From an uncultured Granulosicoccaceae bacterium (GTDB lineage Bacteria; Pseudomonadota; Gammaproteobacteria; CALCKW01): a DNA stretch of 64,000 nucleotides. The notes under the pieces are model-generated. The model was not told the DNA's origin, made no database searches, and worked only from the letters and a program-made list of their open reading frames with translations. Below, piece after piece: positions 38,263 to 55,576 of this stretch. The stretch covers positions 351 to 64,350 of the forward strand of contig CALCKW010000059.1 in NCBI GenBank assembly GCA_937965695.1, in the 5' to 3' direction. Within the stretch, counting starts at the first letter, position 1; each line of letters begins with the position of its first letter. Both the position numbers and the translations under genes were made by a program.

Positions 38263-38356
38263 TTGTAAGAAGTATCGTTTTTTATCCGGACAACAGGTGT
38301 TGTCCAAGAACCGACGGGCAGGACTATGCCCGCATAATGACTCACTTAGGAGAGTA

Positions 38357-39607
38357 ATGATGTTGCATAAACTTCGTAACCGTATGCCAATGGCTGCACT
38401 GGCACTAGCTGTCGCCGGTCTGGTCAGCAATGTGGCTGTAGCCGGCGATCTTGTCATCAACTTTGATGATCCAAATGCAGGTCCAAAAGCAGGATTTGAG
38501 GCAGCAGTTGAAGCCTTTAAAGTTGCCAACCCTGATATCAACGTCACTGTTAACATTAATGACCGGGAAGCGCACAAAACGGCTATTCGCAATTTCTTGT
38601 CCGCCGACGCACCAGATATTACATCTTGGTACCCAGGCAACCGCATGGCACCTTTTGTAGAAGCGGGTTTGTTTGAAGACGTGTCTGACCTTTGGGAACA
38701 AGAGGGCTTCAACGATACTCTGGCGGCAATTCGCCCAACCATGACTATCGATGACAAGCAGTGGGGCGTTCCGTACACTTACTACCAGTGGGGCGTTTAC
38801 TACCGCAAAGACATCTTTGACAAACTGGGTCTTGAAGAGCCAAAGAACTGGGAAGAGTTTAACGCTGTTGCTAGCTCACTAAAAGAAGCAGGCGTAACGC
38901 CAATCACGATCGGCACCAAGTACCTTTGGACTGCTGCTGGTGTCTTCGATTACCTTAACTTGCGTATCAACGGCTATGAGGTTCACAACGACCTAACAGC
39001 GGGTAAGGTCAAGTACACTGATGAGCGAATTCGCAATGTATTCGTCGCGTGGAAAGAAATGGTTGATGCTGGTTATTTCGTCGACAACCACGCCACCATG
39101 TCTTGGCAAGATGCGATTGCACCTTTTGCCAATGGTGATGCAGCAATGTACGTGATGGGTAACTTCTCTGTCGACGGCTACAAAGAAGCTGGTTTGACGG
39201 AAGACCAGATCGACTACTTTCAATTCCCTGAAATAACACCTGGTCTACCTCGTGCAGAAGAAGCACCTGCAGATGCTTTTTTCATTCCATCAAAAGCGAA
39301 AAACAAAGAAGATGCGCGTAAGTTCCTCGCCTTTGTTGCTCAGCCTGACGTGCAGACTCAATGGAACATCACCATCGGTCAGTTGCCCGTTAACAAGAAC
39401 AGCCAAGTTGGCGACAGCAAGTTCTTGACCGAAGGTTTTGAAACACTGTCTACAGCTACTGGACTGGCGCAGTTTTACGACCGTGATGCACCGGCACAAA
39501 TGGCTAAAGCCGGCATGGAAGGCTTTCAGGAGTTTATGCTTGACACATCTAAGCTAGACGCCATTTTAGAGCGTTTGGACAAAGTACAGCTTGAAGTATA
39601 CAAGTAG
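38357..39607 (+). CDS. Sugar ABC transporter periplasmic substrate-binding protein (CUT1 family)
   Basis: The start is called at ATGATG after AGGAGAG. The signal peptide is MAALALAVAGLVSNVAVA. The ORF has a CUT1-family SBP profile. Confidence 0.75.
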   Translation: MMLHKLRNRMPMAALALAVAGLVSNVAVAGDLVINFDDPNAGPKAGFEAAVEAFKVANPDINVTVNINDREAHKTAIRNFLSADAPDITSWYPGNRMAPFVEAGLFEDVSDLWEQEGFNDTLAAIRPTMTIDDKQWGVPYTYYQWGVYYRKDIFDKLGLEEPKNWEEFNAVASSLKEAGVTPITIGTKYLWTAAGVFDYLNLRINGYEVHNDLTAGKVKYTDERIRNVFVAWKEMVDAGYFVDNHATMSWQDAIAPFANGDAAMYVMGNFSVDGYKEAGLTEDQIDYFQFPEITPGLPRAEEAPADAFFIPSKAKNKEDARKFLAFVAQPDVQTQWNITIGQLPVNKNSQVGDSKFLTEGFETLSTATGLAQFYDRDAPAQMAKAGMEGFQEFMLDTSKLDAILERLDKVQLEVYK

Positions 39608-39619
39608 GGCTTAGCCCGA

Positions 39620-39648
39620 GATGGGTCGCTCTGACCCATCTTTTTTAA
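39620..39648 (+). terminator. Rho-independent terminator after the sugar SBP gene
   Basis: The sequence GATGGGTCgctctGACCCATC is followed by TTTTTTAA. Confidence 0.5.
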
Positions 39649-39649
39649 C

Positions 39650-40633
39650 GTGGATAAAACGATGAGCCAATTCCAGAACAGTCAAAGTTGGTACAAGAGA
39701 AATCAGTTGCAGATAGCACCTTGGTTGTTCGTGGCACCAGCTCTATTTTTCTTCAGTATTTACGTCATCATTCCCATCTTTCAATCAATATCTATTTCTT
39801 TTTACGAATGGAATGGGCTCTATAACGCAGCGGGTGAATCCACAGCGAAGTGGGTCGGCTTTGATAACTACGTCAAGCTGATGGATGATGATAATTTTTA
39901 CACCTCTCTGAAAAACAATTTGATCTGGTTGCTGCTGTTTATGGCTGCAGTGCCCATCGGCCTCGCATTGGCGCTGTTTCTCAATCAAACAGTGACCGGT
40001 ATGCGTTTTTACAAGTCAATGTTCTTTTTCCCTTTTGTTATTTCCCAAGTAGTCGTTGGTTTGATATTTGGCTGGTTTTACAACCCTGAATTTGGTGTGG
40101 TCGGCTCCATCTGGAAAGCGTTGTATTGCGAGGAAGTCACCAACATCATGGGTAACCTAACCAGTAAATGCAGTGTTCAACCACCCAATATCCTTGGCGA
40201 TGAAAACTGGGCAACCTATGGCATTATTTTCGCGGGCCTTTGGCCACAAGTTGCCTATTGCATGATCTTATACCTGACAGGACTAAATAACGTGTCGCCG
40301 GATCAAATTGAAGCGGCACGCCTAGACGGCGCACGCGGCTTTAAGATGTTGCGTTACGTGATTCTACCGCAGCTAGCACCAGCTACTTTTCTCGCTGTTG
40401 TAGTGACGGTTATTGGTGCGCTGCGTTCCTTTGACATGATTGCTATCATGACTCGCGGCGGTCCTTATGGTTCCAGTAACGTGCTGGCTTACTATATGTA
40501 TGAAACCGCAATCTCTGAGTACGGAGATCGATACGGTTACGGCTCCGCCATTGCGACCGTACTGTTTTTGATCATGTTGGTATACATCTCTTACTTCTTA
40601 TTTAAGATGTATAGAGACGAGCGAGGTCAATAA
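39650..40633 (+). CDS. Sugar ABC permease (MalF/UgpA-like)
   Basis: It is polytopic with an EAA-loop region (EAARLDGARGFKMLRYVILP). Confidence 0.8.
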   Translation: MDKTMSQFQNSQSWYKRNQLQIAPWLFVAPALFFFSIYVIIPIFQSISISFYEWNGLYNAAGESTAKWVGFDNYVKLMDDDNFYTSLKNNLIWLLLFMAAVPIGLALALFLNQTVTGMRFYKSMFFFPFVISQVVVGLIFGWFYNPEFGVVGSIWKALYCEEVTNIMGNLTSKCSVQPPNILGDENWATYGIIFAGLWPQVAYCMILYLTGLNNVSPDQIEAARLDGARGFKMLRYVILPQLAPATFLAVVVTVIGALRSFDMIAIMTRGGPYGSSNVLAYYMYETAISEYGDRYGYGSAIATVLFLIMLVYISYFLFKMYRDERGQ

Positions 40634-40634
40634 C

Positions 40635-41486
40635 ATGTATCCGAGTCCTATAGAGAAAGCCTCACCGTTCAAGCGAATTGCTTACAAAATGGTGTTGCCG
40701 GTAGCGTTGTTTGTTTGGCTGCTGCCTTTGCTGGCGATTTTCATGACATCGATTCGCCCTGCTGCCGATATCAACACGGGCAATATGTTTGGCTGGCCCA
40801 GCGCATTTAATTTGGTGGAGAACTACACCGCGGTATTTACCGAGTCTCAGGCTGCTAGTTATTTTTGGAATTCAATTAAAGTCACCGTGCCAACAGTTGT
40901 CATGGCGCTGGTGCTTTCTTGTTTGGCAGGCTATGGACTAGCCATTTATCGATTTAAGTTTGCGCTGCCGTTGTTTTTCTTGTTCATCGCAGGCAATTTT
41001 GTCCCTTTTCAAATTCTGATGGTGCCTGTTCGTGATCTATCAGTACGCACTGGTCTCTACGACACAGTTACTGGGCTTGTGCTATTCCATGCGGCATTCC
41101 AGACGGGTTTTTGTACCTTGTTTATGCGAAACTTTATTAGAGGCCTACCGCACGAGCTCATCGAAAGCGCGCGCATAGAGGGTGTAGGGGAGTTACGTAT
41201 TTTTTGGTATGTGGTACTTCCATTAGTACGCCCAGCCATCGCAGCGCTTGCTGTTTTGATCTTTACGTTTATCTGGAATGATTTTTTCTGGGCTACTGTA
41301 TTGACTCAAGGGGAGGCATCTAAACCAATTACTGCGGGTATACGCGCGCTAAACGGACAGTTTGTCTCTCAATGGCACCTTGTGTCGGCAGCATCTCTGA
41401 TGGCGGCATTACCACCTGTTCTTATGTTCTTCGCGATGCAAAAGCACTTTATCGCCGGATTGACACTAGGCGCGACCAAGGGCTGA
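40635..41486 (+). CDS. Sugar ABC permease (MalG/UgpE-like)
   Basis: It is polytopic with an EAA-loop (ESARIEGVGELRIFWYVVLP). Confidence 0.8.
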   Translation: MYPSPIEKASPFKRIAYKMVLPVALFVWLLPLLAIFMTSIRPAADINTGNMFGWPSAFNLVENYTAVFTESQAASYFWNSIKVTVPTVVMALVLSCLAGYGLAIYRFKFALPLFFLFIAGNFVPFQILMVPVRDLSVRTGLYDTVTGLVLFHAAFQTGFCTLFMRNFIRGLPHELIESARIEGVGELRIFWYVVLPLVRPAIAALAVLIFTFIWNDFFWATVLTQGEASKPITAGIRALNGQFVSQWHLVSAASLMAALPPVLMFFAMQKHFIAGLTLGATKG

Positions 41487-41589: not shown

Positions 41590-42729
41590 TTACCTGCCTG
41601 ACGGACTCTCACTCGGTGAAAGTTTTTTACGCTTTCCCAGCTTAAAGCGATCGGCTGTTGCGTATTCGCCTGCGGCGACACCGGCAGCAAAATCGCCAAA
41701 CACTGGGCCATGCTTGAACAGGTGGCCTGAACAACCACCGACCATCAACACCTTGTCGTGGGCAGGATGCCAGTCAACGATAAAATGCGTGTCAGGTGTA
41801 AGGATGATCTGATTGAACTTGCTGTCGACCACGCGCTCTCCCTCAAGACCAGGAAGGCGCTTACGGATGTATTGGCGTGTGCGGTCAATGGTGGAGCGGC
41901 GAATGAGTCGCTCGTCGTTATCTAGGTCAATTTTGTCCGGGATAACGACCGCTGCTTTAACACCGTGACCCTCCACTGAAGGCATACCAAAGCTGCCCTG
42001 ACCGTGGTCAATCCAGCAAGGCATATTGCTGTGGTCGTAACGCTCATTTCCAGCAGGCGTAGCGGTATAGAGTACATTGACACCTACCACCGTACTGATT
42101 GGTTTGATGGTGCGTGGAAACATATCAGCCATCCATGGCCCCGTAGCGATGATAATGCGATCCGCTTGCATGCGCTTGCCATCCAGCAGCGGGTATTCGT
42201 CGGCGTCTGTGCTGACAGCACCACGTTTGACGACACCCCCCAATTTCTGAAACAACTGCACCGCGGAAATAACCGCGCGGTGAGCCATTAGCAAGCCTGC
42301 CTCTGGTTCGTATATACCGTAAGCGATGTCATCGCTCTTGAACTGCGGAAATCTCACCGCCAGTTCACGTTGATCAAAGCGGTGGTGAGGGACACCCAGC
42401 TTGGAGAACGTTTCGCAGGTAGCGTCCTCCCAGTCGCAGTGCCCAGCGGTTGCCAAAATGAGGGCCCCGCATTCGTAGTAAAGGCGCTGTCCTGTTTCCT
42501 CTTGCAATTCAAGCCACTGCAGGCGTGCTTCTCGAGCCCAACGCGTGTAGAACTCGTCGCGGCCGTGAATGGCACGGATGACCCGGTTGTAATCGGTTGA
42601 CGACGCGCGCGGATGGCCTGGCTCCCATTTGTCGATCAACGTAACAGAGTGTCCTCGTCGCTGCAGAGATAGGGCGGTCATGGTGCCTGCGATACCGGCA
42701 CCCACCACAATAATGTCGTTGAAATTCAT
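41590..42729 (-). CDS. FAD-dependent oxidoreductase, DAO family (sarcosine-oxidase-beta / gamma-glutamyl-amine oxidase PuuB / opine-oxidase-like)
   Basis: The start is at MNFNDIIVVGAGIAGTMTALSL, a dinucleotide-binding motif, and the ORF is about 380 aa. It is divergent from the GS-like gene and shares the palindrome-bearing intergenic region. Confidence 0.75.
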   Translation of the reverse strand: MNFNDIIVVGAGIAGTMTALSLQRRGHSVTLIDKWEPGHPRASSTDYNRVIRAIHGRDEFYTRWAREARLQWLELQEETGQRLYYECGALILATAGHCDWEDATCETFSKLGVPHHRFDQRELAVRFPQFKSDDIAYGIYEPEAGLLMAHRAVISAVQLFQKLGGVVKRGAVSTDADEYPLLDGKRMQADRIIIATGPWMADMFPRTIKPISTVVGVNVLYTATPAGNERYDHSNMPCWIDHGQGSFGMPSVEGHGVKAAVVIPDKIDLDNDERLIRRSTIDRTRQYIRKRLPGLEGERVVDSKFNQIILTPDTHFIVDWHPAHDKVLMVGGCSGHLFKHGPVFGDFAAGVAAGEYATADRFKLGKRKKLSPSESPSGR

Positions 42730-42763
42730 TAATGTTCCAAAAAAACGTTGCAATTCGCGTTGA

Positions 42764-42780
42764 TTGAATACAGTATACAA
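42764..42780. promoter_or_regulatory. 17-bp near-palindrome TTGAATAC-A-GTATACAA, a candidate GntR-type operator in the divergent promoter region of the DAO gene and the BMC operon
   Basis: I read this directly from the sequence. A nearly identical element, cTGTATAC-A-GTATACAA, lies at 55538..55554. Confidence 0.45.
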
Positions 42781-42853
42781 AAACGCGAAAATGAGCAAGA
42801 TAAAGCATCGGATAGATGTATAGTAACGGTAAATCAACTCGGAGAGGTCGCAT

Positions 42854-44149
42854 ATGAATCAGCTGGATCCCACACTGCCTGAGGGTATTCACACTGTCGC
42901 CATGGGCATTGGAGACGCCAACGGCATCATGCGTGGCAAACGGATTCCCGCCAGTCATTGGAAATCGATCTGTGACGGGGGATGCACTATGTCACTCGCG
43001 ACCTTCGCTATTGATATGACGTGTGATGTTTGGGACACGCCCTATGTCAATTTCGACAACGGTTATCCGGATATGCATATTTTTCCGATCTCTCAGCCCA
43101 AAGAATGCCCGTGGGAGCCAGGGGTGGCCGTGTGTATGGCACAGGCCGTTGGCACAGACCATAAACCTGTGCCAATAGATCCTCGAAATGCGCTTGTTCG
43201 ACAGGTAGAGCGCGCACGAGAGATGGGTTTTGAAGTGAGTGTGGGGACAGAGCTGGAGTTTTATTTGCTTGACCCAGAAACTAAGATGCCTAAAGACGCA
43301 GGCATTGGTGTCTACAGCTTGGTGCGGGCTGCTGAGCTTGAACATGTGCTCGGGCCGATTCGCAATGGCTTGGTCGAAGTGGGTATTCCTATAGAACAAT
43401 CCAATCCCGAGTATGCCGCTGGTCAGGTGGAAGTGAATATTCGCTTTGACGAGGCACTGTTAGCCGCCGATCGTGTCGTGATGTTTCGCAATCTGGTGAA
43501 AGAACTTTCAATGCATCACGGCTACTTGGCAACGTTCATGTCCAAGCCCTTTTTGGAAGAGTCGGGTAGTGGCTTTCACACCCATTACTCGCTGTGGCGA
43601 GACGGTAAAAATCAGTTCAGTGATGATGGCAAGTTTAACCAACTCGGTCGTCATTTTGTGGCGGGCTTGCAAAAAAGAATGGCGGAGATGGCGCTTGCTT
43701 CAGCGTCTAACCCCAATGCCTATCGCCGACGTCAGCCATATACTTTTTGCCCGACCAATACCAGTTGGGGCCCCGACAATCGCACGGTGGGTTTGCGCGT
43801 GATCGAAGGCTCTGAAAGTGCTGCTCGTATCGAAAAACGTGATGGATCTGCAGATTGCAATCCTTATTACTTGCTCGCTTGCGAGTTGGCGGCGGGCCTG
43901 GATGGTATCGAGGCTGGCGAGGAGCCGTCTGAAATGACCACGGGCAATGCCTATGAATCCGAGACTGAAGGTCTTATCCCCGCTGACATGGCCACTGCAA
44001 TAGCCTTGGCGAAAGAGTCAACGTTTATGCGTGACGTTATGGGTGAAAGCGGGCTTCAGATCATGATTCAACAAGCAGAGCGAGAACTCGAATTCATCGC
44101 GACACCAATATCACCGGTAGAGATTGAGCGCTACCTTGGAAACTTTTAA
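42854..44149 (+). CDS. Glutamine-synthetase-family ligase (gamma-glutamyl-amine synthetase; GmaS/PuuA/IpuC-like)
   Basis: The ORF is 431 aa with a GS catalytic-domain pattern (…EVNIRFDEAL…GSGFHTHYSLW…NPYY…). Its stop overlaps the start of the BMC vertex gene (TAATG). Confidence 0.75.
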   Translation: MNQLDPTLPEGIHTVAMGIGDANGIMRGKRIPASHWKSICDGGCTMSLATFAIDMTCDVWDTPYVNFDNGYPDMHIFPISQPKECPWEPGVAVCMAQAVGTDHKPVPIDPRNALVRQVERAREMGFEVSVGTELEFYLLDPETKMPKDAGIGVYSLVRAAELEHVLGPIRNGLVEVGIPIEQSNPEYAAGQVEVNIRFDEALLAADRVVMFRNLVKELSMHHGYLATFMSKPFLEESGSGFHTHYSLWRDGKNQFSDDGKFNQLGRHFVAGLQKRMAEMALASASNPNAYRRRQPYTFCPTNTSWGPDNRTVGLRVIEGSESAARIEKRDGSADCNPYYLLACELAAGLDGIEAGEEPSEMTTGNAYESETEGLIPADMATAIALAKESTFMRDVMGESGLQIMIQQAERELEFIATPISPVEIERYLGNF

Positions 44150-44442
44150 TGCGCTTGGCTAATGTCACAGGCACTGTCACAGCGACAGTCAAATCTCAGT
44201 CGCTAACTGGGTTGAAGTTTTTGCTGGTGGACTATACAGACGCCGGCGGCAAAGTTATCGATGCGGCACGTGTTGTTGCGGACGATGTTGGTGCCGGCGT
44301 AGGTGACCAAGTCATTGTCAGCGAAGGATCAGCCGCACGATTACCCAATGGCATGGCAGGCTTAGCGGTGGACGCGACGGTTTTGGCCATTGTGGACGAG
44401 GTTAAAACAAAGGCAAGAAGGGCGGCAGCCAAGTCCGGCTGA
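44149..44442 (+). CDS. Bacterial microcompartment vertex protein (BMC-P; EutN/CcmL/PduN family)
   Basis: The sequence MRLANVTGTVTATVKSQSLTGLKFLLVDY…VGAGVGDQVIVSEGSAARL… has the typical EutN/CcmL pattern. The ORF is 97 aa. Confidence 0.85.
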   Translation: MRLANVTGTVTATVKSQSLTGLKFLLVDYTDAGGKVIDAARVVADDVGAGVGDQVIVSEGSAARLPNGMAGLAVDATVLAIVDEVKTKARRAAAKSG

Positions 44443-44557: not shown

Positions 44558-44866
44558 ATGGCGACAAAACAAGCACCCGGGCAGTCAGCACTGGGCATGA
44601 TCGAGACACGGGGTTTGGTAGCAGCGGTTGAAGCGGCCGACGCAATGGTAAAAGCAGCTAACGTCACTATCGTAGGGCAAACCAAGGCTGGTGGTGGACT
44701 GATCACAATCCTAATCCGCGGCGAAGTCGGTGCTGTTAAAGCTGCAGCTGATGCTGGTGCCAATGCTGCAAATAAAGTGGGTGATGTTGTGGCCGTCCAC
44801 GTCATTCCGCGACCACACGATGAAGTCGAAGGAATTTTGAGCGCACTCGGCGGTGGCGGCGAGTAG
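44558..44866 (+). CDS. Bacterial microcompartment hexamer shell protein (BMC-H; PduA/EutM/CcmK family)
   Basis: The canonical Pfam00936 pattern is present: [58 protein letters not shown]…VHVIPRPH. The ORF is 102 aa. Confidence 0.9.
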
Positions 44867-45035
44867 TGCTCTGACAACGCGGCAAATTAGGATGCAGCGT
44901 GCCGTCGTATTTTTAGATATTCGAGCTAGTTATGAATCGCATTTTATTGACAATCATAGGTAATGCTAAGCGGGTGTCCTTTAGGAACGCTTTTGCTTCA
45001 TTTGTGCCGCGCTTTCAGAGCACGGAGGCTAACTG

Positions 45036-46244
45036 ATGAGCGACGTGGACTTCGAGCGCTTCACCCAGTCTCTGGGTGTTCAAACGTCAGGAGCAAGCGC
45101 TGCTACTTCGGCGAAACGTTTTGAGCGCGCATGCGTATTGGGTGGAGACAGCGATGCCTGGTTGTTGGCGGCAATTTGTGTGGCCAATGACACTCCGGTG
45201 AAATTGTTTTCTGCCTACGCTGCTGAGCTTGACCCACTGCGCTCAGCCGGTGGTGTGACACTGCGAGGCGCTGGACCCATAGGAACTGTCGCACTAGATC
45301 AAAGTAAGTCTGCAAGCATTGAGACAACCACGGTGCTTGATTCAGCTGTCAATGACAGCGATATCATCTTTTTAACTGGGCCAGTGCACAAACTGCGCAC
45401 CTGGGCGATGGTGTTGGCAGGTCATCTGCGTGATGGTCAGGTCGTTGTCGTTTTGAATGCTCGTACATTTGGCGCTTTAGAGACTCGAAGTTTGTTGAGG
45501 CTAGGTGGTAGTACGGCAGATTGCACTATCGTCGAGTTGCAAGGTGCACCTTGGTGGTTAGCTGCTTCAGGCACCCAACTGCAACTTTCAAAACGGACGG
45601 CCCCATTGGCGGCCACGCTTCCAGCTCGGCGCGAGCATGTGCTTCAGGGTTTGCAGGCTTTGATTGGTAAAATACAACCATGTACCTCAACACTCTACAG
45701 CAGTTTTGGAGATTGCAGTGGTGTTGTGGAATTACCTGCATTGGTGCTAGGCGGTCCGTTCAATCCCAACGGGGGACCAGCTGTTCCGGATGGTGCAAAC
45801 GCACTGCCTGTACATCAGAATTTTCATAACCTATTTGGTGAAAGCCATCGGCTTGTAGCCTCGCAATTGCTCGACGAACGTCGTTTGGTGGCCTCCAAGT
45901 TTGGTGTGCGAGATCTACCAAATCTTGAGTTGGCATTGAGCGACTATGCAGGCGGGGTTGAAGCAGATGATTCACGCGCAATTCCCAACTTGCAGCAAAG
46001 CAGAGAGATGCTCCGCTGTGCAGTAATTGCGTCGCTATTGCCATTGCAAAGTGCTGCGCAGTTGGCGGGTGTTGCAGTTCCTGTAACGCAGGCGATGACG
46101 ACACTGGGTAGCAGTTTGCTCGACGCTGATTTAACGGCGGCTGGACGATGGCTCGAAAGTTTGGGTGTGGCCAGTACGAGTTTCGATGATTGCAAGCGAT
46201 CTTTAGCTGAACTAATAGACGGAGAATCTAGCGGTGGACGCTGA
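45036..46244 (+). CDS. Opine-dehydrogenase-like (octopine/nopaline DH family) protein with N-terminal amphipathic-helix-plus-linker extension
   Basis: It is collinear with Arthrobacter-type opine dehydrogenase. The matching pairs are DSDIIFLTGPVHKLRTWAMVLAGHLRDGQVVVVLNARTFGALETRSLL versus DADVILIVVPAIHHASIAANIASYISEGQLIILNPGATGGALEFRKIL, and LLDERRLVASKFGV versus VDAERIAIAKAFDL. The GxGxxG motif is replaced by GGDSDAW. The first ~30 aa (VDFERFTQSL plus a GASAATSA linker) are extra. This assignment is by recalled homology and is not searched. Confidence 0.5.
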   Translation: MSDVDFERFTQSLGVQTSGASAATSAKRFERACVLGGDSDAWLLAAICVANDTPVKLFSAYAAELDPLRSAGGVTLRGAGPIGTVALDQSKSASIETTTVLDSAVNDSDIIFLTGPVHKLRTWAMVLAGHLRDGQVVVVLNARTFGALETRSLLRLGGSTADCTIVELQGAPWWLAASGTQLQLSKRTAPLAATLPARREHVLQGLQALIGKIQPCTSTLYSSFGDCSGVVELPALVLGGPFNPNGGPAVPDGANALPVHQNFHNLFGESHRLVASQLLDERRLVASKFGVRDLPNLELALSDYAGGVEADDSRAIPNLQQSREMLRCAVIASLLPLQSAAQLAGVAVPVTQAMTTLGSSLLDADLTAAGRWLESLGVASTSFDDCKRSLAELIDGESSGGR

Positions 46245-47613
46245 TTTAAGATCAATACAAGCAGCACGTGAGGCGGCCGATAAGGCTTTCACCGCATGGC
46301 AGACTTTTAAAAACACGGACCCAGCACAGATTGATGAAATAGTGCAGGCGATGGCGCGTGCCATTGAGCCTGAGGCCCTACGCTTGGCTGAGCTAGCGGT
46401 CGAAGAAACGGGTTACGGGAATGTGCCGGATAAACGCATAAAAAATCTGTTTAATTCTCTTTCAGTGGCTGAATGGCTGCGCGACATTAAGACGCTGGGC
46501 TTGTTGTGGCAGGATGAGCGAACCAAAATTGCCGCAATCGGTGAACCGATGGGTTTGGTGGCAGCGTTGATCCCGGTGACAAATCCCACATCGACCATTA
46601 TTTATAAGGTTTTGTCGGCTGTTAAGGCTGGCAACGCTATTGTTTGCGCGCCGCATCCACGTGGGGTCAAAAGCGGTGTTGCAACCGTAGAAATCATGGC
46701 GCGTGTTGCCGAGCAAATGGGTGCGCCTAAGGGACTCATTCAGTGTTTGGATCAAGTGACAAACCAAGGCACTGCTGAACTCATGAAACATCGACGTACG
46801 TCGGTGGTTATGGCTACCGGTGGACCGGCCATGGTGCAGGCCGCTTATTCATCTGGTAAGCCAACTCTGGCTGTTGGAGCAGGTAATGTGCCTTGTTATG
46901 TCCATGCCTCAAAAAAATCGGAACTAGCCGAGGTCGCTGAACAAATATTGACCTCTAAGAGCTTTGACTACGGCACCGCTTGTGTCTCGGAGCAGGCGAT
47001 TGTTGTCGATCGTGAAATTGCCGGGCAGTTGCGGCATGAGATGCGTATGCGTGGTGGTTATTTTTGCACCGCTTCCGAAGCTGAGCGTTTGGCAAAAGTG
47101 ATCTTTACGCCAAATAACAGCATGAACCCAAACAATGTAGGTCAATCACCTGAGAGTTTGGCTTCGCAGGCGGATATCCAAATTCCACCCAATTGCCGCG
47201 CTCTTATTGCCGATCAAAGTGAAATAGGCTGGCATGCTCCCTTGTCCGCAGAGAAATTAAACCCGGTGTTGGCTTGGTACGAAAGCAAAGACAGCGACGA
47301 GGGCATCGACATCTCTGAGCGGATCGCTAAGTTTGGCGGTTGGGGCCACAGTGCGGTGGTGCATTCAAATGATCCCGGCATTGTGAGTCAGTACAGCCGC
47401 CTGCCCGTTGGGCGTGTGCTGGCCAACACACCCGGTATTTTGGGTGGTATGGGATTCTCGACGGATCTAGAACCGAGTTTCATGCTGGGAACAGGCACCT
47501 CTTCTGGCTCCATTGTTTCTGACAATGTGACAGCCTTGCATTTGATTAATATAAAACGTGTCGCTTGGCAAAATAGGCCATGGCGAGACATCTATGATAT
47601 CTACGGAGAATAA
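46234..47613 (+). CDS. CoA-acylating aldehyde dehydrogenase (EutE/PduP-type metabolosome signature enzyme)
   Basis: The ORF is 459 aa in the ALDH superfamily. It has the BMC-AldDH-style N-terminal region (…FKNTDPAQIDEIVQAMARAIE…) and a catalytic Cys context (GTACVSEQ). It overlaps the upstream gene by 11 nt and sits between shell genes. Confidence 0.75.
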   Translation: MDADLRSIQAAREAADKAFTAWQTFKNTDPAQIDEIVQAMARAIEPEALRLAELAVEETGYGNVPDKRIKNLFNSLSVAEWLRDIKTLGLLWQDERTKIAAIGEPMGLVAALIPVTNPTSTIIYKVLSAVKAGNAIVCAPHPRGVKSGVATVEIMARVAEQMGAPKGLIQCLDQVTNQGTAELMKHRRTSVVMATGGPAMVQAAYSSGKPTLAVGAGNVPCYVHASKKSELAEVAEQILTSKSFDYGTACVSEQAIVVDREIAGQLRHEMRMRGGYFCTASEAERLAKVIFTPNNSMNPNNVGQSPESLASQADIQIPPNCRALIADQSEIGWHAPLSAEKLNPVLAWYESKDSDEGIDISERIAKFGGWGHSAVVHSNDPGIVSQYSRLPVGRVLANTPGILGGMGFSTDLEPSFMLGTGTSSGSIVSDNVTALHLINIKRVAWQNRPWRDIYDIYGE

Positions 47614-47615
47614 GC

Positions 47616-48242
47616 GTGGCGAGTAAAATTACTATACGAGCGTTGATGCAGATCGACCGCTTGCAGCCAAAATTTGCTGCCTACAACGGTGCAACGGTAC
47701 AAGGTTCTGTGCCGCTCGCGGGCGATACCGTGCTTATTGGTGAGTTTGCACCTGGGAATGGGGTGTTTACCTTAATTGATAAGGCGCTGAAAGCGAGCGC
47801 TGTTGAGGCTACTTCGCAGTTGGTCGAGCGCGAGTTTGGTTTTTTTATTCTTCGTTCTACGTCTAACGCGGAAGTGAGTGCGGCGAGAGATGCCATTCTC
47901 TCGGAGTTAGGCGCAAGCATGGAATCGCGTATCAAGCCTCAGCTTGAGTCTACTCAAATCATAACCTCCGTTGAGCCCTATCAAGCCCAATTGATTAATA
48001 AGTGGCGTAAAGGCGCATTGCTGGTTCCTGGCCAGACACTGGGTATTGTTGAGTGCTCGCCAGCGGCTTATATCTCTGTTGCGGCCAACGAAGCTGAAAA
48101 GGCAGCTCACATAGATATTGTAGAAGTGAGGGCGGTAGGACGTTTTGGTCGTTTGTTTATTTCTGGTGGTGAAGACGATGTGAAGACCGCCATCGCAGCC
48201 GCGAGCAAAGCCATTGAAGCAATGGATGGGCAGTCGGCCTAA
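47616..48242 (+). CDS. Tandem-BMC-domain shell protein (BMC-T, PduT-like)
   Basis: The ORF is 208 aa. The second half (TLGIVECSPAAYISVAANEAEKAAHIDIVEVRAVGRFGRLFISGGEDDVKTAIAAASKAIE) is a clear BMC domain. The first half is a more divergent BMC-like domain. Confidence 0.6.
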   Translation: MASKITIRALMQIDRLQPKFAAYNGATVQGSVPLAGDTVLIGEFAPGNGVFTLIDKALKASAVEATSQLVEREFGFFILRSTSNAEVSAARDAILSELGASMESRIKPQLESTQIITSVEPYQAQLINKWRKGALLVPGQTLGIVECSPAAYISVAANEAEKAAHIDIVEVRAVGRFGRLFISGGEDDVKTAIAAASKAIEAMDGQSA

Positions 48243-49423
48243 TGGCGGATTTGGTCAGCGATGCGGATGTCATTGCCGCTCATCGTCGAGGGCGGATGGT
48301 GATAGAAATCGTACCGGGAACGATTGTTACACAGCAAGCTCGTGATACTGCAGCGCGGCTGGGCGTCTCGCTACACGAGGGTTTGCTGGAGCGTCCTCAA
48401 GCGCCTCGCACTGATGGCAATGTGAGTTTGAGGCGTAACTTATGGCGTCGTAACCCTGGCTGGATTTCACCGCTAAATAAACCGACACCACGTGCACGCC
48501 GTATAAAAAAGTTAGCACTGATAGGTGCTGGCGGGGTAGGTGCCAATATTGCGCATTTGGTGTGCAATGCTCACTCAGCTGATCTAGTGTGCTTAATAGA
48601 TGTGGTGCCGGGCTTGGCAGAATCTGTCGCTTTGGACCTTGAGCATGCCACCGGTGTCAATCGATCTGCAACACGCGTCAGTGGTGGAGAATCGCTGCAA
48701 GCGGTTGCGGGTGCTGAAGTGGTTGTTGTTACAGCAGGGCGACCGCGTACACCGGGTATGGGTCGCAGTGATCTGCTGGATATTAACCGACGTGTTATCC
48801 GAACGGCAGCTCAGGCGATCAGTGAGCATGCACCAGAGGCGATTGTTATTGTTGTCACCAATCCCCTCGACGAGATGACCGTTGAAATGCTTCGCGCAAC
48901 AGGATTTCCGAGACAGCGAGTGCTTGGCATGGCCGGCACACTTGACAGCAGCCGGTTCCGCCGTGCACTAGCAAAAGAAGCGGGTGTTGCGGTGGCTGAT
49001 GTAGAAGCCATAACACTCGGCAGCCATGGCGATGAAATGACGCCAATCACTTCTCGCGCCCGTATTCGCGGTCGTACGTTAGAGACTGTGTTGTCGCAAG
49101 AGCAAATAGACGCCTGCGCAAAAGATGCCGTCACCGGTGGAGGGCAGGTAGTAGCACTGCGCAAGACGGGTTCAGCGACTGTTGCGCCTGCACACTCAAC
49201 CGTAGAACTCATTGACCACATCCGAGGTGCACTGAATGGCGCTGTGCCAGTCTCGGTAATGCTAGAAGGCGAATACGGAATAACTGGCGTAGTTCTAGGG
49301 GTCCCTTGCTTGATTGGTGCTAGCGGTGTGTTGGAGGTAGAAGAGCTGGCCTTAAATGAATCTGAAAGTCAGATGCTTCACGCGGCGGCGCAAGCGATTA
49401 CAGAGCGATTGAACGATGCCTGA
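48242..49423 (+). CDS. Lactate/malate dehydrogenase-family NAD-dependent 2-hydroxyacid dehydrogenase with ~90-aa N-terminal extension
   Basis: The LDH/MDH core begins at about aa 95: LALIGAGGVGANIAHL, VVVTAGRPRTPGMGRSDLL and GSHGDEMTPI (catalytic His). The preceding 90 aa (MADLVSDADVIAAHRRGRMVIEIVPGTIVTQQARDTAARLGVSL…) are not part of the LDH fold. The start overlaps the BMC-T stop (TAATG). Confidence 0.75.
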   Translation: MADLVSDADVIAAHRRGRMVIEIVPGTIVTQQARDTAARLGVSLHEGLLERPQAPRTDGNVSLRRNLWRRNPGWISPLNKPTPRARRIKKLALIGAGGVGANIAHLVCNAHSADLVCLIDVVPGLAESVALDLEHATGVNRSATRVSGGESLQAVAGAEVVVVTAGRPRTPGMGRSDLLDINRRVIRTAAQAISEHAPEAIVIVVTNPLDEMTVEMLRATGFPRQRVLGMAGTLDSSRFRRALAKEAGVAVADVEAITLGSHGDEMTPITSRARIRGRTLETVLSQEQIDACAKDAVTGGGQVVALRKTGSATVAPAHSTVELIDHIRGALNGAVPVSVMLEGEYGITGVVLGVPCLIGASGVLEVEELALNESESQMLHAAAQAITERLNDA

Positions 49424-49832
49424 TCCTGTTTTGTTGAAAGCGGCAGGCGGTGGTCGATTTGAAAAAATTGGCGCCTACGCGCGAGCGCGTCGCGTGGGCC
49501 CTTTTGTGTATGTGGCAGGCACGACTGCGATAGCGTCAAACGGGCTACTGCACGCACCCGGTGACACTTACGCACAAACGCTTTTTATCTTTGAACGCAT
49601 AGAGCAAGCATTGGCCGATGTACAAGCTGAGATGCGACATGTGGTCCGCACCCGAGCATTTTTTAGCGAAATCGCCAACGGTGGCGATTTCGTTCGTGCG
49701 CATGGTGAGGTTTTTACGGGTATCGAACCCGTCACCAGTGGCGTCGCCGCTGGATTGACAACCCCGGGCATGATGATTGAAATCGAAGTGGATGCTTTAG
49801 TCCACGACACCCAAGGAAATATACAGTGGTGA
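49416..49832 (+). CDS. RidA/YjgF/TdcF-family reactive enamine/imine deaminase
   Basis: The ORF is 138 aa with a RidA family pattern (…FVYVAGTTA… …TRAFFSEI… …GIEPVTSGV… …IEIEVDALV). It overlaps both neighbours. Confidence 0.75.
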   Translation: MPDPVLLKAAGGGRFEKIGAYARARRVGPFVYVAGTTAIASNGLLHAPGDTYAQTLFIFERIEQALADVQAEMRHVVRTRAFFSEIANGGDFVRAHGEVFTGIEPVTSGVAAGLTTPGMMIEIEVDALVHDTQGNIQW

Positions 49833-51706
49833 GCGGCGTTCATAACACCCCATCTGGCGGATGGGCCTCATGGTTCGATCTGCGCAGCCGCGAGTCCCTG
49901 TTGTCTGCGTTTCTACTTTTTGCGATCGTGTGTGTTTTGCTGGCGGCAGCCGCCTACTTTGAACTCGCTAGTCCTCGCTTACTCAAGATTGGCTGCGTCA
50001 ACTTAATCGCTGCATTAGCGCTGGGTCTTTTCAGCGGTTCAACGGGTGTTCTATCTCTCGGACATGTCGCGTTTTTTGGTATTGGCGCCTACGTTAGCGC
50101 GTGGTTCACTTTAATTCCCGCAATCAAAGGCATGCTCTTGCCTGACATGCCAGTTTTTATTCAGCAATCGCAGTGGAGTCTCTGGTTCGCCGTTATTCCA
50201 GCCATCATCGCTGGTCTATTGGCCGGTGTTTTGACTGGTTTCGTGATGCGGCGCTTGCGTGATACTTCCGCCGTTATCGCGAGTTTTGGTTTTTTAGTCA
50301 TTTTTTACCTTTTGTTTATAGGGTTGAAAATTTTTACGAATGGAAAACAATCCCTTTATGCCTTACCCATCGACCAATTGAGTTGGCCGTTAACCATGAC
50401 AGCGATCGCAACGGCTCTGCTTGTCACATTTGCCATACGCGCCAGTGCATTGGGAAGGGCGGCGGAGTCCTTGCGAGATAATGAAGCAGCTGCTCGTTCT
50501 GTTGGCGTAGACGCTGACCGTACCTTCTTTTGGGTGTGGGTCGCCAGTGCTGCACTGATGGCTATGGCTGGCGCCTTGTTTGCGCACTCCATTGGCATCG
50601 CGTCTCCTAGCAGTTTCTATTTAGATAAAACATTCGCTCTTATTGTGATGATAATCGTTGGGGGTTATCGGTCATTGACGGGTTGCGCTCTGGGTGCGGT
50701 GTTAATAACAATCGTTGAAGAATTACTAAAGCACGCAGAAGAATCTTTGGGTGCCCTTGCAGGCCAACAAGTACTGGGCGGTCTTATTGAAATGCCCCGT
50801 GTTTTTGGCCTAACGGCCTTGTGCTTCTCAGCGATTATTTTGTTGGTGTTGTATTTACGCCCAGAGGGCGTGATTGGCTATCGCGAATTGGCGCAAGCAG
50901 GTCTTATAAGACGACTGTTTGGGCGATGGCTCGAACCTGCCAGCAAGGGTGAAGAACAAGTCATCTACTCTGTGCCCAAGGAGTCGGAACTGTCCGCGCA
51001 GTCTTTGGGTAAAAATTATGGCTATTTTAGCGCCATGAGTGACGTGAGCTTTGAAGTAGGACCAGGGGAAATTGTTGGACTGATCGGGCCTAATGGTGCA
51101 GGTAAGAGCACCTTTATCAATGTAATGACCGGGAACCTTTTTGCGAGCTCTGGCGCTATTTTCCTAAACGGAGAAAATGCGACTCAGTGGAGTGCGCATG
51201 ACTTGGCGCGTCGTGGCATGGGCCGTACTTTTCAAAATATTCGGTTATTTGCCTCGCTTAGCACGTTGGACAATGTGCTGACGTCTGTCAACGTTGCCTC
51301 TCCCAAACTATCTCGTGTTGATGCTGAAGTGCTGGCGATGAATTGGCTACGCGAGCTTAATCTAGATCAGCACGCCCTGGAAGCAGGAGGCTCACTAGCC
51401 TATGGCGATCAGAGACGATTAGAAATAGCCCGTGCTTTGGCTTTGGAACCGCATTTCTTGCTGTTAGACGAACCCGCAGCGGGCATGAACGATTCCGAGA
51501 CCCATCAGTTGCAGCAATTGCTTAAAGATATCGTTCAGCGAATAGGTTGCGGTGTCATTTTGATCGAGCACGATATGCCAATGGTCATGGCGCTCTGCGA
51601 CCGACTGGTTGTGCTCAATAAGGGAGAGCAAATTGCCTCTGGCCCAGTGGCCGATGTGCGTAAAGATCCACAAGTTATAGAGGCTTACATCGGGGAATCA
51701 CCTTAA
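49826..51706 (+). CDS. Fused HAAT-family ABC transporter: LivM-like permease domain + LivG-like ATPase domain in one polypeptide
   Basis: The N-terminal ~370 aa are polytopic. The C-terminal ~250 aa carry Walker A ([10 protein letters not shown]), the signature (YGDQRRLEIARALA) and Walker B (LLLDEPAAGM). A GTG start overlaps the RidA stop. Confidence 0.75.
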   Translation: MVSGVHNTPSGGWASWFDLRSRESLLSAFLLFAIVCVLLAAAAYFELASPRLLKIGCVNLIAALALGLFSGSTGVLSLGHVAFFGIGAYVSAWFTLIPAIKGMLLPDMPVFIQQSQWSLWFAVIPAIIAGLLAGVLTGFVMRRLRDTSAVIASFGFLVIFYLLFIGLKIFTNGKQSLYALPIDQLSWPLTMTAIATALLVTFAIRASALGRAAESLRDNEAAARSVGVDADRTFFWVWVASAALMAMAGALFAHSIGIASPSSFYLDKTFALIVMIIVGGYRSLTGCALGAVLITIVEELLKHAEESLGALAGQQVLGGLIEMPRVFGLTALCFSAIILLVLYLRPEGVIGYRELAQAGLIRRLFGRWLEPASKGEEQVIYSVPKESELSAQSLGKNYGYFSAMSDVSFEVGPGEIVGLIGPNGAGKSTFINVMTGNLFASSGAIFLNGENATQWSAHDLARRGMGRTFQNIRLFASLSTLDNVLTSVNVASPKLSRVDAEVLAMNWLRELNLDQHALEAGGSLAYGDQRRLEIARALALEPHFLLLDEPAAGMNDSETHQLQQLLKDIVQRIGCGVILIEHDMPMVMALCDRLVVLNKGEQIASGPVADVRKDPQVIEAYIGESP

Positions 51707-51807
51707 CAGTGGGTTTCTCGTGTTCGGGTAATCTTTTAAATTATTCGAACTAAGTTAGAGCGTTACTTTTTTGCAGTTAATGTAATAAACACCTCGAAGC
51801 AACAGGA

Positions 51808-52989
51808 GTGAGAACGATGATCAAAAACCTACTAGCAGCAGCCGTGGTCGCCAGTGTTGGCATGACCACAGCACACGCAGATGGTCACGCAAAAGATTTC
51901 GTGATTGGCGCTGTCAACGCAAAAACAGGCTTCATGGCCGCATATGACGCACCTTTTATGCAGGGCGTGCAGATGTATATGGACGGTGCCAATGCTGATG
52001 GCGGCTTTATGGGTAAATACCCCATCAAGTTGATCGAACGCGATGATGGCTCAGACGTGCAAAAGTCTACGGTATCTACAGCCGAGTTGCTGCAGTCCGA
52101 AGAGCTGAATCTATTCATTACCTCTGCACTGGCTCCGTATGCCATTTCCGCAGGCAGCCAGGCATTGGCCAAAGACTTGTTAACTGTCCACACCATTGCA
52201 TCACAGCCCACGATTCCGGCGCGTTTGGGTGAAGGCAGTTACTTGGTCATGATGTCCGATGCCCATATGGGCGGTGTTTATGCCAAGTACGCTACTGACA
52301 CGCTCGAGGCTAAAACTGCTTATATCGTGACGAGTGACTTTGACCCCTACACTGAGTTTCTCCCATTGTATTTTAAAGAGAAATTTGAAGCAGCTGGCGG
52401 TAAAGTCATCGGTCAATCTGACTTTGCCTACGATCAGCAAGAGTTCTCATCAGTCGTCTCTGCGATCAAAGCGCTACCCGAACAACCCGATGTCATTATG
52501 GGAATGCCGTTCGATAACGATTTCCCTATCTTTATTAACCAGCTTCGTGCTGCTGGGGTGAAGTCGGTCTACCTGGGTCCAGACACCCTCGATTTGCCTT
52601 CTGTTAAAGGGTTAGGTGATGTCGTTGAAGGGGTGCATTACGTGACCATGGCTGCTCCTTCTAGCAGCGAGGCCGCGGGTGACTTTGTCAAGGCATATGG
52701 CGAGCGGTATGGCAGCGAAGACAGTGCGTATCCAGCGATGGTGGGTTATTCGTTCATGCGTATGGTTGAAGCGGCAGTCAATGCGGCGGGTGGCACGGAT
52801 GCAGCGGCAGTTCGTGCAGCATTTGCTCAGCTAGAAAATGTCGAAACTGAAATTGGTTCCGTCACTTTTAAAGGCTTTGGTGCGTTACCTAATCTTCCGG
52901 TGCATGTGATGCGCATAGAAGGCGGTAAAGGTGTTCATGTCGAGTCTATTTTGTTAGAGGCAGACGAAATACCAACACCACGTTCTTGA
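51808..52989 (+). CDS. HAAT-family periplasmic substrate-binding protein (LivK/UrtA/FmdD-like)
   Basis: A signal peptide (MIKNLLAAAVVASVGMTTAHA) and a PBP1 HAAT-type profile are present. The ORF is about 390 aa. Confidence 0.7.
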   Translation: MRTMIKNLLAAAVVASVGMTTAHADGHAKDFVIGAVNAKTGFMAAYDAPFMQGVQMYMDGANADGGFMGKYPIKLIERDDGSDVQKSTVSTAELLQSEELNLFITSALAPYAISAGSQALAKDLLTVHTIASQPTIPARLGEGSYLVMMSDAHMGGVYAKYATDTLEAKTAYIVTSDFDPYTEFLPLYFKEKFEAAGGKVIGQSDFAYDQQEFSSVVSAIKALPEQPDVIMGMPFDNDFPIFINQLRAAGVKSVYLGPDTLDLPSVKGLGDVVEGVHYVTMAAPSSSEAAGDFVKAYGERYGSEDSAYPAMVGYSFMRMVEAAVNAAGGTDAAAVRAAFAQLENVETEIGSVTFKGFGALPNLPVHVMRIEGGKGVHVESILLEADEIPTPRS

Positions 52990-53078
52990 GGGCGTGATTA
53001 GCGATGGTGTCGGGAATAGGGCCTGGCACCATTGGCTATCCATGCAAGCATGTTTGATAAATTGACAGAGCTTCGATT

Positions 53079-53795
53079 GTGAAAAAAGCAGTGTTAGAGG
53101 TCGAAAATCTGGTTGTTCAATACGGCCAAATTTCTGCGGTGCAAGGGGTCAACCTAACCGTCAATGAAAATGAGTTGGTCACCGTTATCGGGGCTAATGG
53201 TGCCGGGAAGACTTCTACTTTAAATGCCATGATGGGGTTAGTTCCTGCGGCTAGCGGAGAAATTCGCTACAAGGGTGAATCCCTTTTGCACATGCCGGTT
53301 GAAAAGCGCCCAAGTATGGGTATTGCATTTTCACCTGAGGGACGAAGAGTCTTTGGGCCTTTGTCTGTGCGCGACAATTTGCGGGTCGGTGGGAATAGCC
53401 TGCCGGCCTCTCAGGTTGACGGTCGCATTGACGAAATGGTTGAGCGATTTCCTATTTTGGGAGAGCGCCTACAGCAAGCAGCGGGGACGCTTTCTGGTGG
53501 AGAACAGCAGATGTTAGCCATTGCGCGTGCGCTGATGATTTCCCCCGATTTTTTAATTCTCGATGAACCCTCGTTGGGGTTGGCTCCTATTGTCGTCGCA
53601 CAAGTGTTTGAGTTGATCGCTGAGCTTCATGCGGAAGGTGTGGCAATACTATTGGTTGAACAAAACGTTAGAAAAAGCTTGGCTATTGCTGATCGAGCTT
53701 ACGTTATGGAACTGGGACGCTTTGTGCGTGAAGGTGCAGCCGATGAATTGGCTGCAGACCCATCCATAGAAAATAGCTATCTCGGCGCGGCTTAA
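53079..53795 (+). CDS. HAAT-family ABC ATPase (LivF-like)
   Basis: Walker A (GANGAGKTST), the LSGGEQQMLAIARAL signature and Walker B (LILDEPSLGL) are present. A GTG start is likely. Confidence 0.8.
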   Translation: MKKAVLEVENLVVQYGQISAVQGVNLTVNENELVTVIGANGAGKTSTLNAMMGLVPAASGEIRYKGESLLHMPVEKRPSMGIAFSPEGRRVFGPLSVRDNLRVGGNSLPASQVDGRIDEMVERFPILGERLQQAAGTLSGGEQQMLAIARALMISPDFLILDEPSLGLAPIVVAQVFELIAELHAEGVAILLVEQNVRKSLAIADRAYVMELGRFVREGAADELAADPSIENSYLGAA

Positions 53796-53833
53796 AGGCC
53801 GCCTGAATAATTTAGGTTTCTTGGGAGATAGAC

Positions 53834-54743: not shown

Positions 54744-55409
54744 TTAGCTGTTTAGGATGGCATCCATTTGCAAAGTAAGACCGCCTTCGATGTGATCACG
54801 CATTGCTTCGAAAGCATCGTGACCGTTACCGCTAGCCATCGCATCGATGAGCGGTATGTGATCGCCTAGGGATTTGTCCAGATCAACGTCGTCAATTTTG
54901 GCGAACATACGAAATGAATTGCTGCGGTTCCAGATGGAATCAAACTGTTCTAGCAGAAAACGATTATTAGCTTTTTCAACAATCGCGCGGTGGATGGTGC
55001 GGTTAGCTTCAAAGTAGGCGGAGATGTCGACGCGCTTTATGGACTCTTGCTGCAGCACTAAATTGCGCAGTTGCTCATAGACTGCTTTGTCGTTCCGCTC
55101 GGTGACTAGGCGTGCAGCGAAGCCTTCAATGGCGATTCTCGCCTGATAGATTTCGCGCACTTCAGCGTTGCTGATTTGCCTGATAACAAATCCTGAACGA
55201 CCGGAGGTCTCTAGTACGCCTTCTTGTTCTAGGCGAAGCAACGCCTCGCGTACTGGGGTTCGGCTGACTTGTAACTCGTTTGCAAGCCGCTCTTGCACAA
55301 GGCGCTCGTTGGGAGCGATATCACCGGCGCCTATTGCTATAAGCAATTGCTCGTAGATCTCGTCTGCAAGGCGGGTTTTCTGTACAGAGATGCGTTTGAG
55401 TGTAGCCAT
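54744..55409 (-). CDS. GntR-family transcriptional regulator (FadR/FCD-type C-terminal domain)
   Basis: An N-terminal wHTH (…ERLANELQVSRTPVREALLRLEQEGVL) is followed by a C-terminal all-helical effector domain with His residues. It is divergent from the mgsA-like gene. Confidence 0.8.
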   Translation of the reverse strand: MATLKRISVQKTRLADEIYEQLLIAIGAGDIAPNERLVQERLANELQVSRTPVREALLRLEQEGVLETSGRSGFVIRQISNAEVREIYQARIAIEGFAARLVTERNDKAVYEQLRNLVLQQESIKRVDISAYFEANRTIHRAIVEKANNRFLLEQFDSIWNRSNSFRMFAKIDDVDLDKSLGDHIPLIDAMASGNGHDAFEAMRDHIEGGLTLQMDAILNS

Positions 55410-55537
55410 ATAGAGGTGAGAGTGTTCCTGACAATGGAGCGTGAAATTTAGCTGAACGAGCCGCCTGAGCGGCTTTTAGAGCCAAAAACTGGGTGTTTAA
55501 AAAAACATCATAGCAATGATTGATTGATTCAGGAATA

Positions 55538-55554: not shown

Positions 55555-55576
55555 CGTACATTATGAGGGGAATAAC

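Follow-up and report, generated by a model that had tools for sequence, protein, structure and literature searches.

The opine-dehydrogenase-like (ODH-like) protein encoded at positions 45036-46244 of contig CALCKW010000059.1, from an uncultured Granulosicoccaceae bacterium, starts with 31 residues that probably form an encapsulation-peptide-like module, in which a short helix is carried on a flexible tether in front of the enzyme fold. Positions are those of the window, i.e., the whole 64,000-nucleotide stretch that was analysed. The gene lies in a bacterial microcompartment (BMC) locus of the MIC2 type, for which an earlier catalog recorded a "~10aa long predicted helical EP" (encapsulation peptide) on the same protein (Sutter et al, 2021; Nat Commun 12:3809, PMC8217296, Supplementary Data 2). 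The peptide described here is a rediscovery, in a divergent family member, of that prediction published in 2021, and its novelty is low because the prediction was already in the literature. New relative to the catalog are the larger comparative test, the opine dehydrogenase fold, the loss of canonical catalytic residues, the finding that several BMC clades carry differing N-terminal helices on this fold, and the result that the peptide does not identify the aldehyde-generating step.

The N-terminal helix and its tether

The ODH-like gene is a plus-strand open reading frame (ORF) of 402 codons with an ATG start, preceded by the Shine-Dalgarno sequence GGAGG at 45024-45028, 7 nt 5' of the ATG. 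Its translation begins MSDVDFERFTQSLG VQTSGASAATSAKR FERACVLGG (M-S-D-V-D-F-E-R-F-T-Q-S-L-G / V-Q-T-S-G-A-S-A-A-T-S-A-K-R / F-E-R-A-C-V-L-G-G). AlphaFold2, run on a 30-sequence alignment (mean pLDDT 91, pTM 0.89), predicted a helix at residues 3-17, with pLDDT ~69 falling to 50, a coil at residues 18-31 and the first strand of the Rossmann domain, beta-1, at residues 32-35; pLDDT was below 50 at residues 14-20. From the model and from conservation, the helix and candidate encapsulation peptide was assigned to codons 1-17 (45036-45086), the small-residue-rich and weakly conserved tether SGASAATSAKRFER to codons 18-31 (45087-45128), and the opine-dehydrogenase-fold body, comprising a Rossmann and a helical domain, to codons 32-402 plus the stop codon (45129-46244), all on the plus strand. 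The initial annotation had described a helix followed by a Gly/Ser/Ala-rich linker ahead of the opine dehydrogenase fold, and both parts of that description agree with these results. Ten of the 14 tether residues are Ala, Ser, Thr or Gly, the richest stretch of the protein; this richness (at least 10/14) is unique within the protein (binomial p = 0.01), all eight 14-residue segments that qualify overlapping the tether.

The module is an addition to the fold and lies outside the Rossmann domain. The top Foldseek match of the model was CENDH (1BG6; E 6e-23, TM 0.83); octopine, pseudopaline, yersinopine and staphylopine dehydrogenases came next, ahead of ketopantoate reductases. A search of the PDB with the family profile likewise returned 1BG6 (E 1e-23), but the alignment starts only at profile position 30, which pairs with CENDH residue 7. 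With CENDH aligning from profile position 30 and beta-1 starting at 32, the segment precedes the Rossmann domain rather than being an integral part of it. The protein thus shares the two-domain fold of the opine dehydrogenases (CENDH of Arthrobacter, 1BG6; octopine dehydrogenase, 3C7A/3C7D/3IQD; staphylopine-type enzymes, 6C4x) at ~20% identity, and differs from them in carrying 29 additional residues at its N-terminus. The fold assignment comes solely from structure prediction and the profile search of the PDB: Pfam and NCBIfam scans of the target gave no significant family, and PF02317 (Octopine_DH) scored 14.5 bits (E 0.037) against a cut-off of 30, below the gathering threshold.

An exhaustive scan of 1.84 billion representative proteins yielded 1436 relatives. 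The high-scoring ones are 390-420 aa long and their alignments start at profile position 1-4, whereas full-length relatives scoring below ~150 bits are mostly 355-380 aa long, with profile position 28-31 corresponding to their own residues 2-8. The low-scoring relatives align only from the beta-1 region and therefore do not carry the module; exceptions below ~150 bits that have an N-terminal extension were BMC-linked where checked (P0172, P0185).

The conserved core of the window helix is F6-E-R-F9-T-Q-S-L13, corresponding to the family motif F-x-x-F-[A/T]-x-A-[V/A/M]-[A/S]. The N-terminus was covered by 176 database relatives of ~395-400 aa, of which 118 could be anchored. Both Phe were invariant in all 118, as were F6 and F9 in the 30-sequence alignment; Ala was found at +6 in 106 of the 118, position +4 was Ala or Thr, position +7 was V, A, M, L or I, and a hydrophobic stripe at i, i+3, i+4 and i+7 was kept across the family. 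The tether had an information content of ~1.3 bits per column and was rich in A, P, S and R across the relatives, while 26-28 residues separated the first Phe from the Rossmann strand in 112 of 118. The codons of the invariant residues varied freely in 76 distinct genomic copies (Phe as TTC in 44 and as TTT in 32, Ala as four codons), which indicates selection on the peptide rather than on the RNA. Judged from these alignments, the N-terminal module is under purifying selection at the protein level.

The initial annotation had also called the helix amphipathic. A helix is indeed predicted, but its amphipathicity was not significant on the single sequence: 25% of shuffled versions of these 13 residues reached the hydrophobic moment of 0.47, and the single-sequence moment test was therefore discarded as evidence. 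That the helix is more than a chance pattern is supported by family conservation and not by the single sequence. The same non-significant moment is what speaks for regarding the segment as a chance low-complexity N-terminus or as the artefact of a wrong start codon. We nevertheless ruled out this explanation, to which we assign next to no probability, on the basis of the Shine-Dalgarno sequence 7 nt upstream of the ATG and of a motif that is invariant across >190 relatives and encoded by synonymously varying codons; near beta-1 there is, moreover, no alternative in-frame start. The ATG start is supported by the GGAGG sequence together with the conservation of the N-terminus across homologs.

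Occurrence in microcompartment loci

When 185,579 species genomes were scanned, 153 relatives were detected, and the best 80 loci were fetched with their flanks. They belong to Hoeflea, Nitratireductor, Microbaculum, many Rhodobacterales/Paracoccaceae, Granulosicoccaceae, Arenicellales and others. The motif was present in all 80 loci (FxxF in 79, FxxV in one), four of which were missed by the regular expression and read by eye. When the window proteins were used as tblastn queries, every sufficiently flanked locus showed the order DAO-family flavoenzyme, glutamine-synthetase-like (GS-like) ligase, BMC-P, BMC-H, ODH-like protein, aldehyde dehydrogenase (AldDH), BMC-T, MDH/LDH-like dehydrogenase (MDH-like) and RidA. 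BMC-H preceded the ODH-like gene in every locus with enough flank, and AldDH was located 3' of it in 85 of 87 loci, the exceptions being the control L006, which has no extension, and a locus whose contig stops at that point.

All extension-bearing contexts are BMC loci, namely the window, the 80 genome loci and eight metagenome contigs (of which L001 and L004 duplicate genome loci), and no extension-bearing homolog outside a BMC locus was found among them. Four metagenomic or genomic contexts found through the exact protein had the same BMC setting. The non-BMC relatives that were examined lack the segment: no shell gene lies within ±10 kb of P0276, P0372 or P0369 (from Thermaerobacter and two further lineages), and P0178 has none on its 2-kb contig, where a PrpD-like gene adjoins it. 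A metagenome scan with P0178 alone gave two very distant loci, L088 and L089, that were uninformative. Among relatives with readable flanks, the module is restricted to BMC-encoded clades.

Divergent BMC-linked clades carry other N-terminal helices on the same fold: MSDTDFRAVIDAL in L005, MSDSEFHDLVEAL in L094, MQNEFLATVAAL in L093, and, in the L007 clade, DPRVDAIVAAVMKELQ with a tether of ~45 residues. The ODH-fold gene directly follows BMC-H in all four and directly precedes AldDH where the contig allows, and the triad of BMC-H, ODH-like and AldDH genes recurs across BMC types. The L007 protein has further features of its own. This ODH-fold protein (P0172, L007 458-1765) retains the catalytic His, bears DPRVDAIVAAVMKELQ as a classical-looking encapsulation peptide on its Pro/Ala-rich tether and ends in a Cys-rich C-terminal tail, CSTCGVC; its locus contains BMC-H, ODH-like, AldDH, BMC-T(dp), PduS-like and PduT-like genes.

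The window locus has the features of MIC2, including an AldDH without an encapsulation peptide, and its synteny is identical in the 80 loci. The MIC2 catalog set consists of 22 loci, against 153 genomic relatives found and 80 examined here; the catalog entry also records a EutQ-like extension on MDH/LDH and lists no other obvious MIC2 signature enzyme (Sutter et al, 2021). Within this set the window protein represents a divergent sub-branch, with ~50% identity to the bulk of the family and one relative at 79%. The catalog is silent on the opine dehydrogenase fold, on the replacement of catalytic residues and on the fixed length of the tether, and it mentions neither RidA nor the conserved MSOX-like oxidase. 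Literature searches found no paper characterising the function of MIC2 and none joining a bacterial microcompartment with an opine dehydrogenase.

Proposed encapsulation and possible docking and catalytic roles

We propose that the helix would expose a hydrophobic stripe of F6, F9 and L13 (in the family F, F, A and V/M at i, i+3, i+4 and i+7) opposite an acidic or polar face, and that the flexible tether of ~15 residues would keep it away from the enzyme. During assembly, the stripe would dock on the luminal side of the shell, probably on the adjacent BMC-H hexamer, or on the cargo core, and docking would recruit the ODH-like enzyme into the lumen. We infer shell binding, encapsulation and a catalytic role inside, with the BMC-H encoded at 44558-44866 as the most likely docking partner of the peptide. 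AldDH, which has no peptide of its own and would be translationally coupled to the ODH-like protein, would probably be carried in by piggy-backing. The GTG start of AldDH overlaps the ODH-like stop by 11 nt (46234-46244), which is consistent with translational coupling and a fixed stoichiometry of the two proteins; in related loci the two genes abut or overlap by a few bases. On the other side of the ODH-like gene, an AT-rich gap of 169 bp (44867-45035) separates it from BMC-H, compared with 34-95 nt in the related loci checked. A terminator and promoter scan of this gap found no terminator and two weak, minus-strand promoter-like matches only.

Encapsulation peptides are typically predicted amphipathic helices of 15-20 aa with a poorly conserved linker, present on BMC homologs and not on non-BMC homologs (definition of Kinney, 2012, and Aussignargues et al, 2015; PMC4594438). 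As in the canonical examples of that study (PduP, PduD, EutC, PduE, PTAC), the terminal extension found here is absent from non-BMC homologs, as judged from a small control sample, and consists of a predicted helix with a hydrophobic face, followed by a variable, small-residue linker before the catalytic domain. The linker is poorly conserved (~1.3 bits per column, pLDDT below 50) and of unusually constant length. The module thus agrees with the definition in genomic context and linker, and fits it only loosely in helix length and amphipathicity.

Several observations weigh against reading the module as an encapsulation peptide. The predicted helix is of low confidence, its conserved core spans only ~10 residues (~10-13 for the MIC2 helix, against 15-20 in canonical peptides), and it contains two invariant Phe, although aromatic residues are rare in metabolosome encapsulation peptides (Aussignargues et al, 2015). 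A predicted encapsulation peptide is also not always enough for encapsulation, as in the case of PduE (same study). The near-fixed tether length is atypical, given that the linkers of encapsulation peptides usually vary, and may point to a docking site of defined geometry, either on the enzyme or on a partner. In addition to the shuffling result for the window helix, the hydrophobic moment of 0.47-0.53 is lower than the 0.6-0.8 of classical Pdu/Eut peptides. Finally, the non-BMC control comprises four contexts (one of only 2 kb) of distant relatives (~25% identity). The statement of the initial annotation that the layout is exactly that of PduP, PduD and EutC therefore holds for the general arrangement and fails on exactness, i.e., on core length, the two Phe, the moment and the tether. 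Its proposal of lumen targeting is probable: neither of the two observations that it had named as refuting was made, since the segment was found in BMC loci only and lies outside the fold.

In the main alternative, the same helix could instead be an enzyme-enzyme docking or regulatory element that binds a fixed site on its own oligomer, on the EutQ-like domain of the MDH-like protein or on the adjacent AldDH, with the cargo complex entering the shell by another route, e.g., via the MDH-like extension. The 26-28-residue spacing in 112 of 118 relatives fits such an element, as do the shortness, acidity and modest moment of the helix, the overlap of the ODH-like and AldDH genes and the retention of this gene pair in at least four BMC clades. 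The larger BMC-specific extension of the MDH-like protein could then be the actual shell adaptor, and the peptide of PduE illustrates that an encapsulation-peptide-like segment can be insufficient for shell targeting (Aussignargues et al, 2015). On the other hand, the helix is not packed confidently against the body in the AlphaFold2 model (pLDDT 50-69), shell binding accounts equally well for the restriction to BMC loci, and the docking element differs from the shell-binding peptide that we favour only in its binding partner; we consider it quite unlikely. If verified, the encapsulation-peptide reading would offer a minimal, Phe-based targeting peptide of ~10 residues useful for loading engineered shells, and it would pin down luminal MIC2 proteins and thereby constrain the pathway.

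What the encapsulated protein might catalyse was considered from its active site. The position of H202 of CENDH (in the 'HP' motif), which, together with the Arg and Asp of the RYxxED motif, we take to be catalytic in CENDH and octopine dehydrogenase, corresponds to E232 (45729-45731) in the window protein, and this Glu is invariant across the MIC2 clade. The RYxxED Arg and Asp are lost in the MIC2 clade, the window protein having Leu-Arg-Cys at residues 326-328 (46011-46019). In other BMC-linked clades the His site is occupied by H, Y, S, G, A, N, V or D, and non-BMC relatives retain His-Pro and RYxxED. The loss of the His and the variability at its site suggest changed chemistry or a relaxed catalytic constraint inside the BMC. 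In the nucleotide-binding loop GGDSDA (residues 36-41, 45141-45158), Asp38 (45147-45149) replaces the second Gly of GxGxxA. P0002, the only close relative of the window protein (79% identity), shares this loop. The family sequence is GGGxDA, with Gly at the second position in ~90% of members and Q, S, N, A or C in a few; cofactor binding may be altered in the GGDSDA sub-branch. Near the former active site, the charged or polar residues H118, K119, R121, D226, S228, E232, E281, R282 and R314 are invariant in the MIC2 clade, and because of this invariance an active enzyme with changed chemistry is favoured over a dead scaffold.

From the presumed targeting, the initial annotation had concluded that the ODH-like protein is the signature enzyme. 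This does not follow: the peptide is not diagnostic of a signature enzyme, because core enzymes, among them AldDH and PTAC, can carry encapsulation peptides too (Aussignargues et al, 2015), and the MDH-like protein has a BMC-specific extension of its own. The claim is weakened further by the non-conserved His, Arg and Asp of opine dehydrogenases and by the MSOX/MTOX-like oxidase found in 60 of 60 loci. That the peptide nonetheless marks the aldehyde-generating enzyme is possible, albeit on the doubtful side. An example would be the NAD-dependent cleavage of an N-alkyl-glutamate or opine-like amine, supplied by GS-like and MgsABC-like enzymes, into an amino acid and an aldehyde that passes to AldDH. 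Such a role would suit a protein with an opine dehydrogenase fold (best match 1BG6) whose gene always lies between BMC-H and AldDH, for which the MIC2 catalog offers no other obvious candidate (Sutter et al, 2021). A GS-like ligase is present in the locus, about half of the loci have an N-methylglutamate-like GATase/GXGXG/GltB-like trio, and RidA suits an imine intermediate. However, the canonical His/Arg/Asp are replaced and differ widely from one BMC-linked clade to another, and in the window protein the second Gly of the dinucleotide loop is Asp. Known opine dehydrogenases, moreover, act oxidatively on the carboxyalkyl carbon, and their product is a keto acid rather than an aldehyde. The MSOX/MTOX family releases aldehydes from N-alkyl amino acids. 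The conserved MSOX/MTOX-like flavoenzyme, being of this textbook aldehyde-releasing type, is a rival candidate for the aldehyde source, and NAD+ use by both the ODH-like protein and AldDH would double the recycling burden.

Opine dehydrogenases serve invertebrates as physiological NADH re-oxidisers, and the ODH-like protein could likewise be encapsulated as a cofactor recycler that works in the reductive, opine-synthase direction and regenerates NAD+ for AldDH, or as a non-catalytic scaffold, i.e., a pseudoenzyme that nucleates the core. MIC2 does not have the alcohol dehydrogenase and PTAC of canonical metabolosomes (60-locus census; Sutter et al, 2021), BMC-linked clades show a relaxed constraint on the catalytic His, and ~10% of members have a degenerate glycine loop. 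The invariant charged residues around the former active site in MIC2 argue for a working site and against a scaffold, and the MDH/LDH-like enzyme already looks like an NAD+ recycler; overall, we regard a recycling or scaffolding role as unlikely. Rather unlikely, too, though somewhat less so, is the most far-reaching proposal, in which the remodelled ODH-fold protein (Glu232; new invariant His118, Lys119 and Arg121) would be the encapsulated signature enzyme of MIC2, oxidising a secondary amine, for instance an N-alkyl-glutamate or opine-like product of the GS-like and MgsABC-like enzymes, to an aldehyde within the shell. If this were true, Alpha- and Gammaproteobacteria from marine and host-associated settings would widely possess an organelle with a new chemistry of amine catabolism, and the short Phe-based peptide would constitute a new class of encapsulation signal.

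Neighbouring genes

Divergently oriented to the operon is the gene for the MSOX/MTOX-like FAD oxidoreductase (41590-42837, minus strand; PF01266), which is nearest to N-methyltryptophan oxidase and monomeric sarcosine oxidase and occurs in 60 of 60 long loci; its matches to NF008425 (186 bits) and TIGR01377 (173 bits) are both below the cut-offs. The longest ORF, from a TTG, encodes 415 aa, compared with 379-384 aa in homologs, and an ATG (Met37, at 42729) lies before the GxGxxG motif. Met37 is probably the true start, in which case the protein has no extension. The first gene of the operon (42854-44149, plus strand), likewise found in 60 of 60 long loci, encodes a GS-like ligase resembling type III GS and gamma-glutamyl-amine synthetase (PF00120, E 1e-83), with scores below the cut-offs for TIGR03105 (213 bits) and NF045547 (184 bits). 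It is followed on the same strand by BMC-P, an EutN/CcmL-type pentamer (44149-44442; PF03319, E 5e-23), and by the BMC-H hexamer immediately 5' of the ODH-like gene (PF00936, E 1e-27).

Downstream of the ODH-like gene, and also on the plus strand, are the acylating AldDH with its GTG start (46234-47613; TIGR02518, 492 bits), a double-stacking, CcmP-like BMC-T (47616-48242; NF053796, 204 bits; PF00936), the MDH/LDH-like dehydrogenase (48242-49423; Ldh_1_N from residue 90) and a RidA-family, imine/enamine deaminase-like protein (49416-49832; PF01042, E 3e-18). AldDH residues 2-450 match positions 1-448 of TIGR02518, leaving no terminal extension and so no encapsulation peptide. RidA was found in 53 of 60 loci by clustering and in 75 of 87 by tblastn. 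The N-terminal extension of the MDH-like protein is ~88 residues long (48242-48505), and its residues 1-47 match the N-terminus of EutQ (E 1e-3). It is conserved in 57 loci, before the Rossmann motif, with the consensus RVIGxE..EDAR.RGR.V.EILPGDIVT..ARETA.RLGI.L..GPLE.P...RTDG.TAMRR.LYRRSP.W.AP. The MDH-like protein is the second cargo candidate, and this extension may be the real shell adaptor of these compartments. The same mini-domain also starts an ORF in the unrelated BMC locus L007 (5731-6084), with 46% identity over 46 aa.

Beyond RidA, the window contains a Liv-type ABC transporter (49826-54721), a GntR regulator (54744-55409, minus strand) and a GATase class II/GXGXG/GltB-like FMN trio (55520-58625), the last of which has counterparts no more than 10 kb away in some 30-37 of 60 related loci. 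The census of neighbouring genes in 60 loci showed no PTAC, alcohol dehydrogenase, kinase or other widely conserved enzyme. The GS-like ligase and the trio recall the N-methylglutamate pathway (GmaS, MgsABC), and the position of the ligase beside a DAO-family flavoenzyme resembles the Puu gamma-glutamylation pathway (PuuA/PuuB). By analogy, this suggests a compartment for amine catabolism via gamma-glutamyl or N-alkyl-glutamate intermediates, a lead from gene content; all matches are below equivalog cut-offs. Neither pathway is, to our knowledge, known to involve a microcompartment or an opine-dehydrogenase-fold protein.

Directly upstream, a galactoside-utilisation cluster (29918-41486), apparently unrelated to the BMC operon, encodes an MsiK-like ABC ATPase, an IclR regulator, a GH36 alpha-galactosidase, galactokinase, Gal-1-P uridylyltransferase, a GH42 beta-galactosidase and a sugar ABC transporter.

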